Made by a program: the position numbers and the translations under genes. The notes under the pieces are model-generated. The model was not told where the DNA came from. It was given only the letters and a program-made list of their open reading frames with translations, and ran no database searches. From IMG/VR virus record IMGVR_UViG_3300032163_000008, positions 15,205 through 79,204 of that record: 64,000 bases of DNA; one strand, 5' to 3'. Every line of letters starts with the position of its first letter. The stretch's first letter is position 1. This document shows, piece after piece, positions 2,500 to 21,812 of the stretch. This DNA comes from a virus.

Positions 2500-2900
2500 T
2501 ATTTTTCTGGGTACTTCAGAGGTTGTATGCTGAGGACGTTGTCACCCTTTTTAACCAGCTCATTATGCAGCTGTGCATGATGATTAGCTTTGGCGTGTTG
2601 GTGCCGGGCCATGTTTATATGTGCATGCATATAGTTATCGGCTTTGGCTTGGGCGTGATGATCGGCCTGATCTTCCCAACTTGCATTGGGATTACTCTTA
2701 TCCTTGGGTATATCCAGAGCTTGACCCGACTTCTTGGCATAGTCTTCGGCTCCGTACATCCAGGTGTGAGCATTGTGTGCGTGACCCAGTGCTCTGTGAT
2801 AGTGATGCTGCTTCTCATGCTCACGGCTCTGAGCCATGTGGTCATTCGCTTGTTTCGTATGATCTCTGTATTGTTGAAACGGTGTCATTTGCTTTTCCAT
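2499..2900 (-). CDS. His-rich helical hypothetical protein
   Basis: 18 His in 133 aa; AGAAGG SD and TATAATTA upstream; TAATG coupling to the next gene. Confidence 0.7.
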   Translation of the reverse strand: MEKQMTPFQQYRDHTKQANDHMAQSREHEKQHHYHRALGHAHNAHTWMYGAEDYAKKSGQALDIPKDKSNPNASWEDQADHHAQAKADNYMHAHINMARHQHAKANHHAQLHNELVKKGDNVLSIQPLKYPEK

Positions 2901-2918
2901 GTTGTACCTTCTCTTTCC

Positions 2919-2926
2919 TAATTATA
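2919..2926 (-). promoter_or_regulatory. TATAATTA putative late promoter
   Basis: Same octamer found upstream of the structural genes. Confidence 0.55.
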
Positions 2927-2927
2927 C

Positions 2928-3155
2928 CTAATTGGGCTGTCCATATTCTCGAAACACCTTAAGGTTCTGTCCTTCGATGTTATGGCTCCTATTTATATGG
3001 GCCTTGCCCTGAAGTGGTTTTACTTCGGCATTAGGATCGGGGCTGCCTTCAGCCTTAGCCTTTTTTTGCTTGGCTTTGATCCCTGGGCCCAACTCATTGA
3101 TGTGTATGTCGTCAAACTTATAAGCTTTTAGGAGGTCTACGAATGAGTTGAGCAT
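2928..3155 (-). CDS. Small basic protein, putative internal head protein
   Basis: Coupled ORF (TAATG); DLLKA motif near the N-terminus. Confidence 0.6.
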   Translation of the reverse strand: MLNSFVDLLKAYKFDDIHINELGPGIKAKQKKAKAEGSPDPNAEVKPLQGKAHINRSHNIEGQNLKVFREYGQPN

Positions 3156-4121: not shown

Positions 4122-4347
4122 ACCAACCTTTTGGAACTATGGTTTTTACATGGGCCTATCTAAAAACAAGAGCTTGGAAGTAGAATTTCTCGCCGAGGAT
4201 ACTTGGTTTGAGTTTTATATTGCACTAATTAGGCATCAAGATCACGCAGGGTTTAACCTGCGAATCGCAGTGCTTAGGTTGAGTTTTAACCTTAAATTAT
4301 ATGATAATAGACATTGGGATTATGAAAATAACGAATATGAGGAGTAA
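4114..4347 (+). CDS. Hypothetical phage protein
   Basis: GGGAG SD; DHAG...YDNRHWDY pattern. Confidence 0.6.
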   Translation: MRRPTFWNYGFYMGLSKNKSLEVEFLAEDTWFEFYIALIRHQDHAGFNLRIAVLRLSFNLKLYDNRHWDYENNEYEE

Positions 4348-4350
4348 CAC

Positions 4351-4680
4351 ATGGTAGTAATCGTAGTAGAGCCCGCAGTTCCTGCGGAAAAAGAGGAAAA
4401 CGTCGCGGAAGTCACAGGGGTACCTAGTAAATTGATTAAGTTTTTTAGAGAGACTTGCAGTCCCTGCAAGCAACTGACGCCTATTTTAAATCATATTTTA
4501 GTTGACTATCCCCAAGTAGAGGTCTATAATTATGATGCTGATAAACAGCCTGAATTAGTTCAGCAATACAGTGTAACAGCTGTGCCCACATTAATATTTA
4601 TCAAAGATGATAAAGAAGTTGAACGTATACTAAGCCTTAGGTCGGAGGAAGTACTACGTAAAGCGTTTGAAAAACTATAA
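4351..4680 (+). CDS. Thioredoxin-family protein
   Basis: CSPC active site, VPTLIFIKD cis-Pro motif, GAGGAG SD. Confidence 0.9.
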   Translation: MVVIVVEPAVPAEKEENVAEVTGVPSKLIKFFRETCSPCKQLTPILNHILVDYPQVEVYNYDADKQPELVQQYSVTAVPTLIFIKDDKEVERILSLRSEEVLRKAFEKL

Positions 4681-4690
4681 AGGAGTTCAC

Positions 4691-5089
4691 ATGAAACTAA
4701 AAGTATTTGATGTATTGAATAGTATTGAACCAATCCGCGAGCTCAATAACAGAGATGATATGCCAATCGGTGTTAGCTTGAACCTAGTTCTAGCTTCTAA
4801 AGCCCTTGAGCCAATTCTCAATGTCATTGACGAGAAACAAAAAGGTCTTGTTGTAAAGTACACTACACCCACAGAGGAAACTACTACGGATGCAGAAGGT
4901 AAAGAAACAACTCAGACTCTTAATAAGTTTAATAGTGATGAGGATCGTGAAGCCTATAGCAAGGCCTACCAAGAGCTTCTTAATGAAGAAGTAGAGATCA
5001 CTGCTAAGCAAGTTGATTCCAGTAAGTTCCCCGAGACTTTTACAATTAGTGCCCAGAAGCTTATGGCTCTGAGCTGGTTGTTAGTCTAA
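4691..5089 (+). CDS. Hypothetical helical phage protein
   Basis: ATG at 4691 after AAGGAG. Confidence 0.7.
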   Translation: MKLKVFDVLNSIEPIRELNNRDDMPIGVSLNLVLASKALEPILNVIDEKQKGLVVKYTTPTEETTTDAEGKETTQTLNKFNSDEDREAYSKAYQELLNEEVEITAKQVDSSKFPETFTISAQKLMALSWLLV

Positions 5090-5097
5090 ACTTAGTC

Positions 5098-5131
5098 AGA
5101 GCAGCATTAGATCGACCCCTAGTGCTGCTCT
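5098..5131 (+). other. 13-bp stem-loop (possible terminator or processing site) directly before a TATAATTA motif
   Basis: AGAGCAGCATTAG...CTAGTGCTGCTCT; no U-tract. Confidence 0.5.
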
Positions 5132-5133
5132 CC

Positions 5134-5141
5134 TATAATTA
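5134..5141 (+). promoter_or_regulatory. TATAATTA putative late promoter
   Basis: Octamer begins 12 nt before ATG 5146. Confidence 0.55.
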
Positions 5142-5145
5142 AACT

Positions 5146-5334
5146 ATGCCATTAGGATTCCTTGATACATTATTATTGATTTTAATCACACTAAAGCTAC
5201 TACATCTAGTCAGCTTTTCCTGGTGGGTAGTATTTACACCTCTTTTCTTATCACTAGCTCTGAATATTGTGGCCTTTGCAAGCATTATCACACTGACTCG
5301 AAAAATAGTAGATGTCAAAAAGAAGGCTAAATAA
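5146..5334 (+). CDS. Small two-TM membrane protein
   Basis: LKLLHLVSFSWWVVFTPL pattern common in small phage membrane proteins. Confidence 0.65.
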   Translation: MPLGFLDTLLLILITLKLLHLVSFSWWVVFTPLFLSLALNIVAFASIITLTRKIVDVKKKAK

Positions 5335-10129: not shown

Positions 10130-10476
10130 TAAGAGACGCAGCGCAGCTAGGTAATCAGACTATTCAAGACATTAAAGCGGAGAAGGCCCGACAGATAGAT
10201 AAGTGGGGGATACAGGATAGGCCTATAGCGGATTGGTTAGCTATTTTAGGAGAAGAGGTGGGGGAGTGCAACCGAGCCTACCTAGAGATGATGTTTGACA
10301 AAAACTACGATAATTATGACGGACACTATCAGGAGCTCATAGATGAGTTGATCCAAGTTGCCACAGTAGCTGCGAATGTAGCAGACGCTTTGCGGTTGAC
10401 TAAGGTAAGGAAGAAAGATATGTTTCAAGCCCTTAAAGATATAATTACGGATGCCTGGACAGGACCAAAGAACTGA
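10126..10476 (+). CDS. MazG-like NTP pyrophosphohydrolase
   Basis: LGEEVGE...ELIQVATVA. Confidence 0.8.
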   Translation: MIRDAAQLGNQTIQDIKAEKARQIDKWGIQDRPIADWLAILGEEVGECNRAYLEMMFDKNYDNYDGHYQELIDELIQVATVAANVADALRLTKVRKKDMFQALKDIITDAWTGPKN

Positions 10477-10649
10477 TGAGAGACCCTAAACGCATCGAAG
10501 AAATCCTCGTAACTCTAGGCCACATTTGGATGAAGCATCCCGATCAGCGCTTTTGCCAACTACTCTTCAATATAGGGCTGGCACAAGACCTCTTTTACCT
10601 AGAAGATGATAAACTGCAAGTAATGCTAGATAAAGTCAAAAAGGAGTAA
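10476..10649 (+). CDS. Small YihD/DUF1040-like protein (absent from ORF track)
   Basis: MRDPKRIEEILVTLGHIWMKHPDQRFCQLL...FYLEDD; TGATG coupling. Confidence 0.7.
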   Translation: MRDPKRIEEILVTLGHIWMKHPDQRFCQLLFNIGLAQDLFYLEDDKLQVMLDKVKKE

Positions 10650-10655
10650 ACTGCC

Positions 10656-10808
10656 ATGGATGAATGTGAAAACTGCAAGAAACTGGAAAAGAAGCTTAAG
10701 GACGAGTATGTGAAGATTAGGGCATTGACTACACTATTCTTACAACTAACTGAAGATCACTTGGGGCAACTAGAGACTACTATGAAGGATGCGGATGTAC
10801 CCTTCTAA
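10656..10808 (+). CDS. Small coiled-coil protein (absent from ORF track)
   Basis: AAGGAG SD; 50 aa beginning MDECENCKKLEKKL. Confidence 0.5.
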   Translation: MDECENCKKLEKKLKDEYVKIRALTTLFLQLTEDHLGQLETTMKDADVPF

Positions 10809-11019
10809 ACTAGTTACTGAGAAGTTGCAGGAGTTACGGAATGAGCCCAACGAGACTCTGTCTAGGATGAGCTTTGAGGAGTATACTGATGCTGTATGGA
10901 ATGCAGCTATTGAGCATTCTGTAAACACTAGACAGATTCAAAATCTTATTGAGGATGCCTATAGTGAAGGCTATGAGAATGGATGGGAAGAAGGATGCGA
11001 AGAGTATGACAGCAAATAG
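10789..11019 (+). CDS. Hypothetical acidic protein
   Basis: AYSEGYENGWEEG pattern. Confidence 0.55.
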   Translation: MRMYPSKLVTEKLQELRNEPNETLSRMSFEEYTDAVWNAAIEHSVNTRQIQNLIEDAYSEGYENGWEEGCEEYDSK

Positions 11020-11251
11020 TTTAAAAGCGGATAGCAGAGACCTTATTGAGCATCTTGATAAAAGAGGACTCTCATATAAAGAGTCTAATGGTGGACAGTT
11101 CCATAAAAGTATCGCGATAGGGAGTATTGAGAAGCTTAGGGAAGGCTATAAGATAGCTAACTTATTCAATACGGTAACGAATGAGAAGTTCTTGAAGGCC
11201 TTAGAGGTATCACAGAAGGCTGCCAATATGATACTTCAAAACAACAACTAG
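11006..11251 (+). CDS. Hypothetical protein
   Basis: Probable ATG 11006 overlapping the previous stop. Confidence 0.5.
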   Translation: MTANSLKADSRDLIEHLDKRGLSYKESNGGQFHKSIAIGSIEKLREGYKIANLFNTVTNEKFLKALEVSQKAANMILQNNN

Positions 11252-11259
11252 TATAATTA
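11252..11259 (+). promoter_or_regulatory. TATAATTA putative late promoter upstream of the structured RNA
   Basis: Exact octamer. Confidence 0.55.
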
Positions 11260-11263
11260 AGTC

Positions 11264-11492
11264 ACTCACGTACCTAGTGTACGAGGAGCTATTAGGATGC
11301 TTGCATCCTTTTTAGAAGAGGCGTGTTGGGGATGGTACACGGCTAATCGATGCTCAGCTTGAGCAGAGTGGGGGATGCCCCAAGCGTGTGCTGGCTCATG
11401 GTAACCAGACTACCCCAACTTAGGCGGACACGCCGCTCTATCGAGGTTTTGGGGGTGTACCCGGTAACAAAACACCCCCTCACACAAAACTT
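11264..11492 (+). ncRNA. Candidate structured ncRNA, family not recognised
   Basis: GC-rich intergenic region with nested helices: GGCGTGT/ACACGCC, GTTGGGG/CCCCAAC, GGTACACG/CGTGTGCT, TGCTCA/TGAGCA, GGGG/CCCC, GGGGGTGT/ACACCCCC. Confidence 0.55.
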
Positions 11493-11497
11493 AGCCA

Positions 11498-11505
11498 TAT
11501 AATTA
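11498..11505 (+). promoter_or_regulatory. TATAATTA putative late promoter
   Basis: Begins 12 nt before ATG 11510; no SD. Confidence 0.55.
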
Positions 11506-11509
11506 GTAT

Positions 11510-13528
11510 ATGCGTCCTGGGTTACTCATAAAAAATGATCCACATAAAAAGGTTATACTACACGATGGTCTCCGTATCCACGTAGAATGGCTCAAAGGTT
11601 CTATACGATCATACAAAAATTCCGATTTTAAGAAGCTCATGCACGCCGATTATGGTTACATACACGATACCACAAGCCGTGACGGAGAGGACATTGATGT
11701 ATATGTAGGCTCTGATCAAGTTACAGAAAAAGTGTATAAAATAAAACAACTAAAGTCTGAGTATGAGGCTGAGAAGCAAGGTGGTACTGCTTATGAGTCT
11801 TTTGATGAATGGAAGTATATGCTTTTCTTTCCCTCAGCGAAGGCAGCAAAAGATTGTTATATAAAGTGTATGGATAAGAAACTTTTTGGCGGTATTGATG
11901 AGATGTCCTGGAGCACCTTTAAAGGGATAGTCACTCGCAGTAGACCAAAAGAACTATCTAAGGGGGTACAATTAAAAGAGAAACCCGAGTACAAGGAGAC
12001 TAATATGGATGACGGCAAAATAGAGTTATGGTTAAAGGCAAAAACGTCTAGTATCATTATACCTCATAAGGATTTTACTCCTAAGAAACCCAAAATAAAC
12101 TTAAACCCTTTTAAAGCAAAAAAGGAATCTCCTGATACTATTATGCCTCTTTCGGCAGACCTAACAAAGAACCAGCACGATGACCTGAAGATAAAGAAGG
12201 GTAAGACTGTTGAGCGAAATTTTGATCCCAAAACTCACTACATAAATAGGGATGGTAAGGTTACTAAGAAGGTTCCCGCTGCCCAACGCATCGAGCAACT
12301 TTCGAGCCACGATCAAGTCGAGCATGCAAAAAATCCAGAAATAGAACTAAAGGATCCAGACCTTAATCCAAAAGGACATGAGGGTGGACCAGTTAAAGTT
12401 TTCAAATTAGAAAAGAGCGCACAGGAGGCTAACATGATAGAGTACAGAGATGGGAATAGTGAGATAGGTTACCAATTACTAGTAAAAAATGCTACAGACA
12501 GGGCTGAGCTTATCAAAACTAACTTCATGGAAGAGTTTACATACGAAGAGACTCCCTCTCAAGAGCTGTTTAAAGGCTGGTCAGAGGATCAAGAGTATGG
12601 AGAATACCTATCAAAACGTAGAGGTAACATGGTAAAAGATGCTCCTATCTACAAGATGGCCGATTTAGAGCCGATTGAAGTCTCTCCAGAGCTTATTGCT
12701 TTATATAAAGGGGATACTTTTGGTATTCCTTCTGAAGGTGAATTTGATCTAGTGGATTTCGTCAAGAATAGCCAATTAAGTGAGTTTGAAGGCTCCCCAG
12801 TGGCACAGCAAGACGCTGACCATCGAGCATTAGCGAAGATGGCTGAGCTATATAATGAGGTATGGACGCCTTTATTAAAGAAGGTTGCAGAAGAGCTTGA
12901 AGAAAAAGAAAAGAAAAAAGACGAGGACCTCGAAGATGTTGAAGTTGATTTAGATGGAGAGGACGAGGATACTCCTGAAGATGACACTATCGATGAAGCT
13001 GCAGATAAAGAGGATAAAGTAGACTTTAAGAAGGAACTTCATAAGGGTCTAACGGACCGTGGTGTTGTAGACGTTAACAAAGTTGAGCGCATATTTATTA
13101 AGATGCTACTTGAGGGTGGAGAATCCGAATTACAGAAGAAATATGCAAGTTTTAGTAAGCTAGTCAGCAGACTCAAGAAGAGTACTGAGATGACCAGTGA
13201 CCAAAAGCCCCAAGTGGTTAATGGTAATCCCGTTGCCAAGAAGTTTGACTCAAAGTCAAATACCAAAGCTACAATCATTCACAGAGCCCCTACAAAGAAG
13301 AAGGGTATTTCTGAGAGCGTTTTAAGTGATGAAGAAAAATATTTTTTCAGTCCTAAAAACCCAGATAATAAAGGGTTTAGAAAGTCTTTTGACGCACTTT
13401 TAGAGCGTTTTGACGGCCTACAAAAGGATTATCAGCATACCACGAAGCCAAAAGGTAGACCCGTGGGCTCCAAAAATGCAGTAGTTAAACCTGAAGTTGA
13501 AAAGATTGAGGAGCAAAGGGAAGTATAG
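11510..13528 (+). CDS. Large charged protein with N-terminal inorganic-pyrophosphatase-like (polyvalent-protein InPase) domain; putative internal head polyprotein
   Basis: DYGYI..T..RDGEDIDVYVG...FDEWKYMLFF; many hydrophobic-x-K-[AGS] motifs. Confidence 0.7.
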   Translation: MRPGLLIKNDPHKKVILHDGLRIHVEWLKGSIRSYKNSDFKKLMHADYGYIHDTTSRDGEDIDVYVGSDQVTEKVYKIKQLKSEYEAEKQGGTAYESFDEWKYMLFFPSAKAAKDCYIKCMDKKLFGGIDEMSWSTFKGIVTRSRPKELSKGVQLKEKPEYKETNMDDGKIELWLKAKTSSIIIPHKDFTPKKPKINLNPFKAKKESPDTIMPLSADLTKNQHDDLKIKKGKTVERNFDPKTHYINRDGKVTKKVPAAQRIEQLSSHDQVEHAKNPEIELKDPDLNPKGHEGGPVKVFKLEKSAQEANMIEYRDGNSEIGYQLLVKNATDRAELIKTNFMEEFTYEETPSQELFKGWSEDQEYGEYLSKRRGNMVKDAPIYKMADLEPIEVSPELIALYKGDTFGIPSEGEFDLVDFVKNSQLSEFEGSPVAQQDADHRALAKMAELYNEVWTPLLKKVAEELEEKEKKKDEDLEDVEVDLDGEDEDTPEDDTIDEAADKEDKVDFKKELHKGLTDRGVVDVNKVERIFIKMLLEGGESELQKKYASFSKLVSRLKKSTEMTSDQKPQVVNGNPVAKKFDSKSNTKATIIHRAPTKKKGISESVLSDEEKYFFSPKNPDNKGFRKSFDALLERFDGLQKDYQHTTKPKGRPVGSKNAVVKPEVEKIEEQREV

Positions 13529-15763: not shown

Positions 15764-15811
15764 ATAGTAAGGGTGTTTCTGCCCAAGGGGTAGAAGTAGA
15801 TTAGCGCTCTG

Positions 15812-18611: not shown

Positions 18612-20000
18612 ATGAGTAATATTTTAGGTGGCGTTTTAGGTGATTCTTTCGGAGTCCCAACTCAAGAGTTGAACGATCTCGCGAAAGCATTAGGAACTGG
18701 TACAGCAAACACAAGTACATACGTACAAGGTGGAGCTCCTTTCCGCGTTCAGAGCTTAGAAGGAATTTTGAAGGTTGTAACGTATCAAGATAGAAACATC
18801 GTCTTTTGGAAAGATATTCCTAAACTACAGGCTTTTAACACTGTAGAAGAATATAACCAATTAACATCGTACGGTTCTACAGGTAGTGGGTTCTTCAGTG
18901 AAGGAGGACTTCCAACCGAGGACGACAGTACTTATGTTCGTCAAACAGCTTTAGTGAAATTTATGGGTACAACTGGTGTCGTAACACATCCTTTAACATT
19001 AGTGCGTTCTGCGCATGGTGATGTTATCGGTCGTGAAGCGAAGAACAGAACTCTGTGGCTGTTACAGAGAGTAGAAGAAGCACTTTTCGGTGGTAATTCT
19101 GCAATTAATCCATTCGCATTTGATGGTTTAGAAAAGCAAGTTGTTACTGCTAATGCAGCTTCACAACTTCAAGAAAACGTAATTGACCTTCGTGGTGCTG
19201 CACTTGATGAAGAGACAAGTGAAAATCTATCTCGCGTCGTTGCAGACAACTTCGGTACTCTTACAACTCTATATGCTGGAAACAAAGTCCTTACAGACCT
19301 TTCCAAGCAGATTCTTCCAAATGGTCGTTTCAGTCTACCTTACGGTGACAAAGAAGGACGTCTTGGATACAGAGTTCGCTTTTTTGATTCGCAGGTTGGT
19401 TCCTACGAATTGAAGCCAAACGTATTCCTTAAAGCAGGCGGACCTTGTCCTACTGTTGCAGACGCTGGTACATCAGCTACAGGAACAATCGTAAACCCAC
19501 TACTCGTTGGTGGTATTGCTAAGTCAGCTATTACACAAACATCACAGTTTACTGCTGGTGCAACGTACAGCTACAGAATCAGTTCCATTGGTGCAGCCGG
19601 AGAAACAGTTCCTAGTGGTCAACTCGCTCAAGCAGTTGCAGGTAGCACAGAATGTGTACAACTTGTAATTACTAACGTGACTGGTGCTACAGGATACAAG
19701 GTTTACCGCGCTCCTGCTGGTACAACAACTGGTCATCTACTTATGACAACAATTCCTGCTACTGTTGGAGCAACAACAACTTTCGTTGATGCTAACGCAG
19801 ATCTTCCAGGAACGTCAAAAGCATATGGCGTAATGATCGATCCAGACCAAGGTCTAGCTTTCAAACAGTTAGCTCCTTTGATGAAGATGGATCTTGCAAC
19901 AGTTGCTGCAAGCTATCGTTTTATGGTTCTTCTTTATGGTGTACCGATTGTTTACAGTCCTCTTAAACAGGTTGTAATTAAGAATATCGGGAATCTATAG
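18612..20000 (+). CDS. Major capsid protein (Twort/A511-like)
   Basis: LAKALGTG...GGAPFRVQSLE, TVEEY, FDGL, IDLRG, LAPLMKMDLA, VLLYG, VIKNIG; strong terminator follows. Confidence 0.92.
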   Translation: MSNILGGVLGDSFGVPTQELNDLAKALGTGTANTSTYVQGGAPFRVQSLEGILKVVTYQDRNIVFWKDIPKLQAFNTVEEYNQLTSYGSTGSGFFSEGGLPTEDDSTYVRQTALVKFMGTTGVVTHPLTLVRSAHGDVIGREAKNRTLWLLQRVEEALFGGNSAINPFAFDGLEKQVVTANAASQLQENVIDLRGAALDEETSENLSRVVADNFGTLTTLYAGNKVLTDLSKQILPNGRFSLPYGDKEGRLGYRVRFFDSQVGSYELKPNVFLKAGGPCPTVADAGTSATGTIVNPLLVGGIAKSAITQTSQFTAGATYSYRISSIGAAGETVPSGQLAQAVAGSTECVQLVITNVTGATGYKVYRAPAGTTTGHLLMTTIPATVGATTTFVDANADLPGTSKAYGVMIDPDQGLAFKQLAPLMKMDLATVAASYRFMVLLYGVPIVYSPLKQVVIKNIGNL

Positions 20001-21768: not shown

Positions 21769-21795
21769 AAAAAGGCCTCTTCGGAGGCCTTTTTT
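21769..21795 (+). terminator. Intrinsic (bidirectional-type) terminator
   Basis: AAAAAGGCCTC-TTCG-GAGGCCTTTTTT. Confidence 0.9.
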
Positions 21796-21812
21796 ATTGT
21801 CTCCATCCCGTC

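Follow-up and report, generated by a model that had tools for sequence, protein, structure and literature searches.

The phi29 pRNA comes from small protein-primed podoviruses, where an early promoter located at one end of the genome drives its synthesis. The HK022 put RNA and EAR are cis-acting read-through leaders, that is, structured GC-rich RNAs located just after a promoter, where a long single-strand operon with terminators begins. Long GC-rich intergenic regions are used to predict structured non-coding RNAs in the GC-IGR and DIMPL approaches, where a candidate is accepted only once its homologues covary (PMC6429828, PMC8723152). The late promoters of Kayvirus, which have been mapped by RNA-seq, consist of a long −10 box (TGTTATATTA) with no −35 element, and transcription starts 6 nt after the box (PMC7698491). 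In T4-type phages, promoter/stem-loop cassettes (PeSLs) drive the shuffling of modules (PMC2839356, PMC4122927). Small promoter-driven phage RNAs also include the RNA anti-CRISPRs, or solitary repeat units (PMC10651486), and the sgRNA mimic rAcrIIA1 (bioRxiv 10.64898/2026.06.03.729762). The locus described here is a gap of 258 nt (positions 11252–11509) in an uncultured sediment phage, in which a GC-rich, non-coding stretch with the potential to form several helices lies between two copies of a putative late-promoter box. All positions refer to the window, i.e. the whole 64-kb stretch of DNA that was analysed, unless they are given for the record. The features of the gap are collected in Table 1.

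Table 1. Features predicted in the gap and the gene that follows it (window coordinates; probabilities are pair probabilities in the predicted ensemble).
Feature	Position	Strand	Remarks
First TATAATTA box	11252–11259	+	Resembles a late promoter of the extended −10 type; immediately follows the stop codon of the preceding ORF
5′ hairpin CGTAC-CTAGT-GTACG	11269–11283	+	Probability 0.99; −7.7 kcal/mol with extension
SD-like GAGGAG	11284–11289	+	Directly after the 5′ hairpin
6-bp hairpin with CUUG tetraloop, then U5	11294–11314 (hairpin 11294–11309)	+	Probability 0.97; −6.5 kcal/mol
Closing helix GTTGGGG/CCCCAAC, 7 bp	11325–31/11413–19	+	Probability 0.96
Inner stem, 8+2 bp	11334–44/11383–92	+	Probability 0.74 for 11334–41/11385–92
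Two terminal hairpins	11351–65, 11369–82	+	Probabilities 0.85 and 0.95
U-less 8-bp hairpin GGGGGTGT / ACACCCCC	11451–58/11472–79	+	13-nt loop; probability 0.97
Second TATAATTA box	11498–11505	+	4 nt before the gp672 ATG (11510)
gp672, first gene of the head module	11510–13528	+	672 aa; InPase domain (PF18823, 3.6e-22); PHROG match to ‘minor head protein’

The window corresponds to bases 15205–79204 of a 79-kb IMG/VR record, the completeness of which is rated 48%; an identical copy of gp672 is also present on a contig of 171,862 bases. Over its full length, the capsid protein (18612–20000) shares no more than 42% identity with those of IMG/VR relatives, although a few short partial matches reach 49%; its identity to that of the Bacillus SPO1-like Herelleviridae is 39%. 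Judging by these low identities, the phage appears to be a large and very isolated Herelleviridae-like myovirus from sediment. Contigs of a second sediment study from the region 10300–11466 are identical to the phage DNA over the parts that they cover, with no variants, so the phage recurs in more than one sediment sample; two DNA sequencing runs contain the stretch, and no RNA run is listed as containing it. On its 5′ side, the gap is preceded by genes for NAMPT, an NMNAT-Nudix protein, a phosphoesterase and a MazG-like protein, along with small unknown ORFs, while gp672, two unknown proteins, the prohead protease and the capsid protein follow on its 3′ side. All of these neighbours are encoded on the + strand, and at the gap an NAD-salvage/MazG block gives way to the late head module. 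None of the annotated genes next to the gap is a terminase, replication or integrase gene. The InPase domain of gp672, a domain known from phage polyvalent proteins, is N-terminal and complete from residue 13, and the reading of the gap as a split gene or an intron was rejected on this ground. Amongst 5.8 billion proteins, the only full-length match to gp672 was gp672 itself, and three weak matches to the InPase domain were also found.

The initial annotation had described a GC-rich stretch between two copies of one motif, just upstream of the head module and free of ORFs of at least 60 aa, and each of these points holds. The longest ORFs in the gap are of 50 aa (+ strand) and 51 aa (− strand), every minus-strand frame over the stretch contains stops, and all six frames are closed. 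Searches of Pfam and PHROGs with the 21-, 50- and 51-aa frames gave nothing at E<0.1, and hence no remnant of a protein family. With frames of at most 51 aa and no family match, no protein-coding gene is detectable in the gap. The GC content is 53% for the stretch (11264–11492), 60% for 11320–11434 and 58–60% for the branched core 11325–11419, as compared with 38–40% in the flanks. At 60% against 42.7% for the record, the core (11317–11436) is the third-highest 120-nt GC window of the 79 kb (+3.3 SD) and the sole non-coding GC island within the window. The window contains 12 gaps of at least 120 nt, among which the present gap ranks first in local GC content and in the middle by folding z-score. 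The stretch is present in a single copy, with no paralogue in the 79-kb record, and its best complementarity within the genome is a 12-mer, which is at chance level. Neither iterons nor an AT-rich unwinding region were found in it. The possibility of a MITE was rejected, as the inverted-repeat match between the ends, assessed by eye, amounts to 4 bases.

The octamer TATAATTA occurs 17 times in the window, where 4.2 copies are expected, and none of 100 shuffled sequences reached that number. Fifteen copies lie on the + strand, most of them in short gaps that precede ORFs of virion genes (for example at 5134, 11252, 11498, 15812, 38610 and 45039). Since it is enriched, strand-biased and placed before late ORFs, we regard TATAATTA as the putative late-promoter box of this phage. 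The copy that opens the gap is accompanied by a partial −35 element (ATGATA, 11228–33) with an 18-nt spacer, and scores 10/12 in a sigma-70-type scan. Between the second copy and the ATG of gp672 there is no Shine-Dalgarno (SD) sequence, so transcription is predicted to start at or next to this ATG. As the spacing known from Kayvirus would put the start on or beside the ATG, the gp672 mRNA would be leaderless. The same arrangement, with the box 4 nt before the ATG and no SD, is found at 5134, and the boxes at 5134 and 11498 suggest that late mRNAs of this phage may be leaderless.

Between the two boxes, the hairpin followed by a T-run near the 5′ end and the stem near the 3′ end, both of which had been annotated, are in the sequence, each with a predicted pair probability of 0.97. 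The former may act as a weak site resembling an intrinsic terminator: its 6-bp stem and U5 tract amount to only −6.5 kcal/mol, and a consensus terminator scan makes no call there. By comparison, a clear terminator of the same phage (around 21780–21810) reaches −17.8. Read-through of such a weak hairpin is therefore plausible. The U-less hairpin at the 3′ side ends 18 nt upstream of the second box and belongs to a pattern that recurs in the genome, in which a hairpin is followed by a promoter, as in PeSLs. Hairpins of −15 kcal/mol or lower are present within 70 nt upstream of 5 of the 17 boxes, the stem at 11451–79 being one of the five cases, as compared with 6.7% of 150 random positions. Strong hairpins, the majority of which lack a U-tract, are located 0–20 nt before boxes at 5090–5133, 11451–11479, 15780–15811 and 21780–21810, as well as at about 10870–10920 of the record, outside the window. 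These recurrent hairpins may serve in RNA processing or stability, or as factor-dependent terminators. Most of the structure in the gap thus looks like ordinary punctuation, made up of a box, a weak hairpin with U5, a U-less hairpin and the next box.

The complementary pairs listed in the initial annotation for the core are all in the sequence, but not all of them are favoured by the predicted ensemble. While the closing helix and the inner stem with its two terminal hairpins are retained (Table 1), the basal helix GGCGTGT/ACACGCC (11320–26/11428–34) has a pair probability of 0.05 and the CTGG/CCAG pairing one of 0.22. The basal and closing helices share two bases (11325–26), and therefore cannot both form in full. 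The hairpin GGCG-GACA-CGCC (11423–34), which had been proposed to compete with the basal helix, indeed prevails over it in the ensemble (0.61 versus 0.05); the centroid structure of the isolated core does include the basal helix. The segment 11393–11412 is weakly paired, and the minimum free energy (MFE) structure has a low frequency in the ensemble. In these models, the 7-bp helix closing a stem with two hairpins is the robust part of the fold.

Folding energies were compared with those of dinucleotide-shuffled sequences. The inner 99 nt (11323–11421) gave z-scores of −2.12 on the + strand and −2.30 on the − strand, with 6 of 200 shuffles as good on each strand. For the whole 229 nt (11264–11492) the values were −1.54 (10 of 200 shuffles as good) and −2.55, and for a 119-nt core (11318–11436) −1.43 and −1.83, respectively. 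The inner domain alone shows a slight advantage over shuffles, the whole stretch does not fold clearly better than they do, and the − strand does as well or better throughout; the predicted multi-helix fold is only marginally better than chance. Since the window has other gaps that surpass their shuffles by more (z of −2 to −3.7), the anomaly of this stretch lies in its composition and not in its folding energy. The structure gives no preference for either strand, and it is the promoter boxes and the orientation of the genes that point to the + strand as the one that would encode an RNA. An AT-rich gap of 244 nt (5090–5333) has a z-score of −3.7 (40 shuffles), which exceeds that of the stretch studied here; its signal comes in part from a 13-bp hairpin just before the TATAATTA copy at 5134. 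Finally, both arms of the closing helix have counterparts of similar sequence in the 3′ hairpin (GTGTTGGGGATG versus GTTTTGGGGGTG, and GGTAACCAGACTACCCC versus GGTAACAAAACACCCCC), and GGTAAC..ACCCC is present twice, the alignment of these internal repeats having a p-value of about 0.01–0.05 against shuffles. This is suggestive only, and the core might be a copied 3′-type hairpin whose loop has taken up about 56 nt.

No match was found to Rfam 15 at gathering thresholds in the 64-kb window, nor at E≤10 in the region 11150–11600, the latter search including ribozymes, riboswitches, pRNA, 6S, SRP, tmRNA, CRISPR-DR and group I/II introns. The stretch is thus not accounted for by a known family. 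That it does not resemble tRNA, tmRNA or SRP RNA, as had been judged by eye, agrees with this result and with ARAGORN, which predicts no gene at default settings and, at thresholds lowered to 50–70%, makes only implausible calls without a T-loop consensus. The suggestions of a packaging RNA or a ribozyme fared less well, as phi29 pRNA and every ribozyme family of Rfam remained unmatched even at E≤10; packaging RNA, decoy and ribozyme have no support as specific functions.

A collection of homologues from related phages had also been proposed, and none were found in GenBank phages, IMG/VR, JGI metagenomes or GTDB genomes. With blastn, no DNA match to the stretch was obtained in GenBank phages. 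When gp672 and the prohead protease were used as anchors, no kin were found in IMG/VR, and the first early ORF is also without kin. The capsid protein served as anchor for 79 IMG/VR loci (identity of at most 49%), in which nhmmer and blastn searches with the stretch gave nothing. According to tblastn, synteny with these relatives extends to the protease, the capsid protein and the InPase domain and no further, which leaves no syntenic junction with which the gap could be compared. A covariance model of the core (R1), built from its single sequence, matched only itself in the 79 loci, 40 whole records and the first 15 kb of its own record. Scans for words and loop patterns (four in IMG/VR, one in JGI metagenomes and one in GTDB genomes) gave candidates which all failed model R1. 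The single GTDB word match, a 19-mer, had a score of 15.1 bits, obtained over the seeded word, and falls within an archaeal ORF of 263 aa; it was rejected as a chance match, about 4 being expected. The stretch is an orphan in all of these collections, and distant homologues may have been missed because the searches used either exact words or a model of one sequence.

Two further regions of the record, both outside the window, are worth describing. The first (record 2810–3050) is a second ORF-free GC island, rich in G-runs, which includes the most GC-rich window of the record (70%). It begins with an 11-mer of the core (GTGTTGGGGAT), which is not significant, given that 18 of 300 shuffles reach such a word; it has no match to model R1 or in Rfam, and its folding z-score is −1.5. 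The other (record 4340–5150) consists of about 800 nt that are ORF-poor and rich in hairpins, before the first early gene, and neither Rfam at E≤1 nor blastn against GenBank phages found anything in it.

Our preferred explanation, to which we give a probability of roughly 0.4 and which is thus tentative, is that the junction with the head module carries a structured leader or RNA cassette that is transcribed late. Transcription would be late, from the first TATAATTA box and on the + strand, and would read through the weak hairpin and its U5. Between the punctuation elements, a GC-rich branched RNA domain of about 95–115 nt (11325–11419, perhaps closed by 11320–26/11428–34) would then form and serve as a structured 5′ leader for the head operon, whose transcripts would include the gp672 start without an SD. 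It might also become a free RNA of about 215 nt, with the U-less hairpin as its 3′ end. What the sequence shows is the boxes, the composition, the lack of coding potential, the potential for pairing and the orphan status; the transcription itself, its strand, the ends of the transcript and any role in cis (in stability, translation or read-through) are inferred. The features that speak for a leader are the enriched strand-specific motif, neighbours on the + strand, a GC island of +3.3 SD in a compact genome, the closed frames, the predicted fold of the inner domain (z of −2.1, probabilities of 0.74–0.96), the recurrent pattern of hairpin and promoter on the 3′ side and the SD-less gp672. Counting against it are the z-score of the whole stretch (−1.5), a minus strand that folds equally well or better, the disfavoured basal helix and the failure to find a homologue. 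With a second promoter present, the downstream genes also do not need a leader.

The same elements can be read as a stand-alone late RNA of about 215 nt that begins at the first box, ends with the U-less hairpin and acts in trans on a host or virion target, as a structural or packaging RNA, a protein sponge or an anti-defence decoy. A box of its own, a stable hairpin and then a fresh promoter make the stretch look like a gene cassette with an RNA payload, and long GC-rich intergenic regions are a recognised predictor of structured non-coding RNAs (PMC6429828, PMC8723152). The 3′ end, however, has no U-tract or other defined end signal, Rfam is empty at E≤10, no homologues were found and the folding z-score is weak. 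Nothing links such an RNA to any target either, the best complementarity in the genome being the chance-level 12-mer, and we consider this reading somewhat unlikely. More unlikely still is its narrower form, a late RNA of a unique family that would act in trans either as a defence decoy, with the 3′ stem mimicking a repeat, or as an RNA that enters the prohead together with the head-cargo proteins encoded nearby. The stretch could also have no function as RNA, being a relic or filler made of GC-rich DNA that recombined at the boxes, or a duplicated G-run/C-run punctuation hairpin with a later insertion. The identical 8-mers on both flanks, the internal repeats described above (GTGTTGGGGATG versus GTTTTGGGGGTG and the two copies of GGTAAC..ACCCC, p of about 0.01–0.05), the orphan status in all collections searched and the shuffling of modules by promoter/stem-loop cassettes in T4-type phages (PMC2839356, PMC4122927) are consistent with such an origin. 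Yet 250 nt of junk are rarely kept in compact phage genomes, the six closed frames hold no detectable remnant of a protein family, and no donor was found for a composition so sharply different from the rest of the genome; on balance this origin is doubtful.

The G-runs and C-runs and the inverted repeats are symmetric between the strands, the − strand has an equally good folding z-score, and another GC and G-run island is located near the edge of the early region in the same record, all of which would suit a site acting as DNA (for protein binding, packaging or replication) at the boundary between modules. Against this stand the lack of iterons and of an AT-rich unwinding region, repeats that are short and marginal, and the fact that terminase, replication and integrase genes are not adjacent, which make such a site very improbable. 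A micro-gene is the least probable of the readings we considered. The candidates for its product are an ORF of 21 aa (11297–11362) and one of 50 aa (11350–11502), and the former has GAGGAG at a favourable distance of 8 nt before its ATG, downstream of a late-promoter box, in a phage that uses AGGAG-type sites after such boxes elsewhere. Its ATG, however, lies inside the hairpin 11294–11309 (probability of 0.97) and the SD is partly paired, while one SD–ATG pair among five ATGs is close to what chance would give (estimated at about 10%). There is also no family match, and the GC-rich part would be left unexplained.

If the core is functional as RNA, large environmental phages would gain one more orphan structured RNA. 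Its position at the switch from metabolic to head genes means that it could control or accompany late expression. As the evidence stands, the value of the analysis is mostly negative, and the stretch is a legitimate but weak orphan candidate. With several GC-rich non-coding islands, the genome is nonetheless a reasonable target for a study of transcription.

Compared with the systems described at the outset, the stretch resembles GC-IGR/DIMPL candidates in being an ORF-free gap far richer in GC than its genome, with the potential for several helices, and differs from those that were accepted in having no homologues and hence no covariation. Like phi29 pRNA (RF00044), it could be a phage RNA of about 120–170 nt with a multi-helix junction and a link to head assembly, but it has no Rfam match at E≤10 and its phage is myovirus-like with about 170 kb. 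The stretch would resemble HK022 put and EAR as a structured GC-rich RNA close behind a promoter and ahead of a long single-strand operon with terminators, but processive antitermination of the kind served by these leaders is unnecessary here, where there are many internal promoters. The 3′ module, GUUUUG...CAAAAC around the 8-bp stem, is loosely similar to a CRISPR repeat or a repeat:anti-repeat duplex. It has no match to the CRISPR-DR families of Rfam, and its lower stem is absent from the MFE structure; the idea of a CRISPR-repeat mimic is not supported, and a plain hairpin before a promoter explains the module. The boxes share with the late promoters of Kayvirus (TGTTATATTA; PMC7698491) and T4 (TATAAATA) a single extended −10-like element with no shared −35, a clustering before virion genes on one strand and a predicted start a few bases downstream. 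They differ in that the putative box is TATAATTA and that the first copy also has a partial −35. As in the PeSLs of T4-type phages (PMC2839356, PMC4122927), a stem-loop is closely followed by a promoter at the boundaries between units, and the repeated boxes could likewise mediate the insertion of cassettes. PeSLs are conserved composite motifs of early promoter and terminator around protein genes, whereas in this phage only the 8-mer is shared, the promoter is of a late type and the payload is non-coding.
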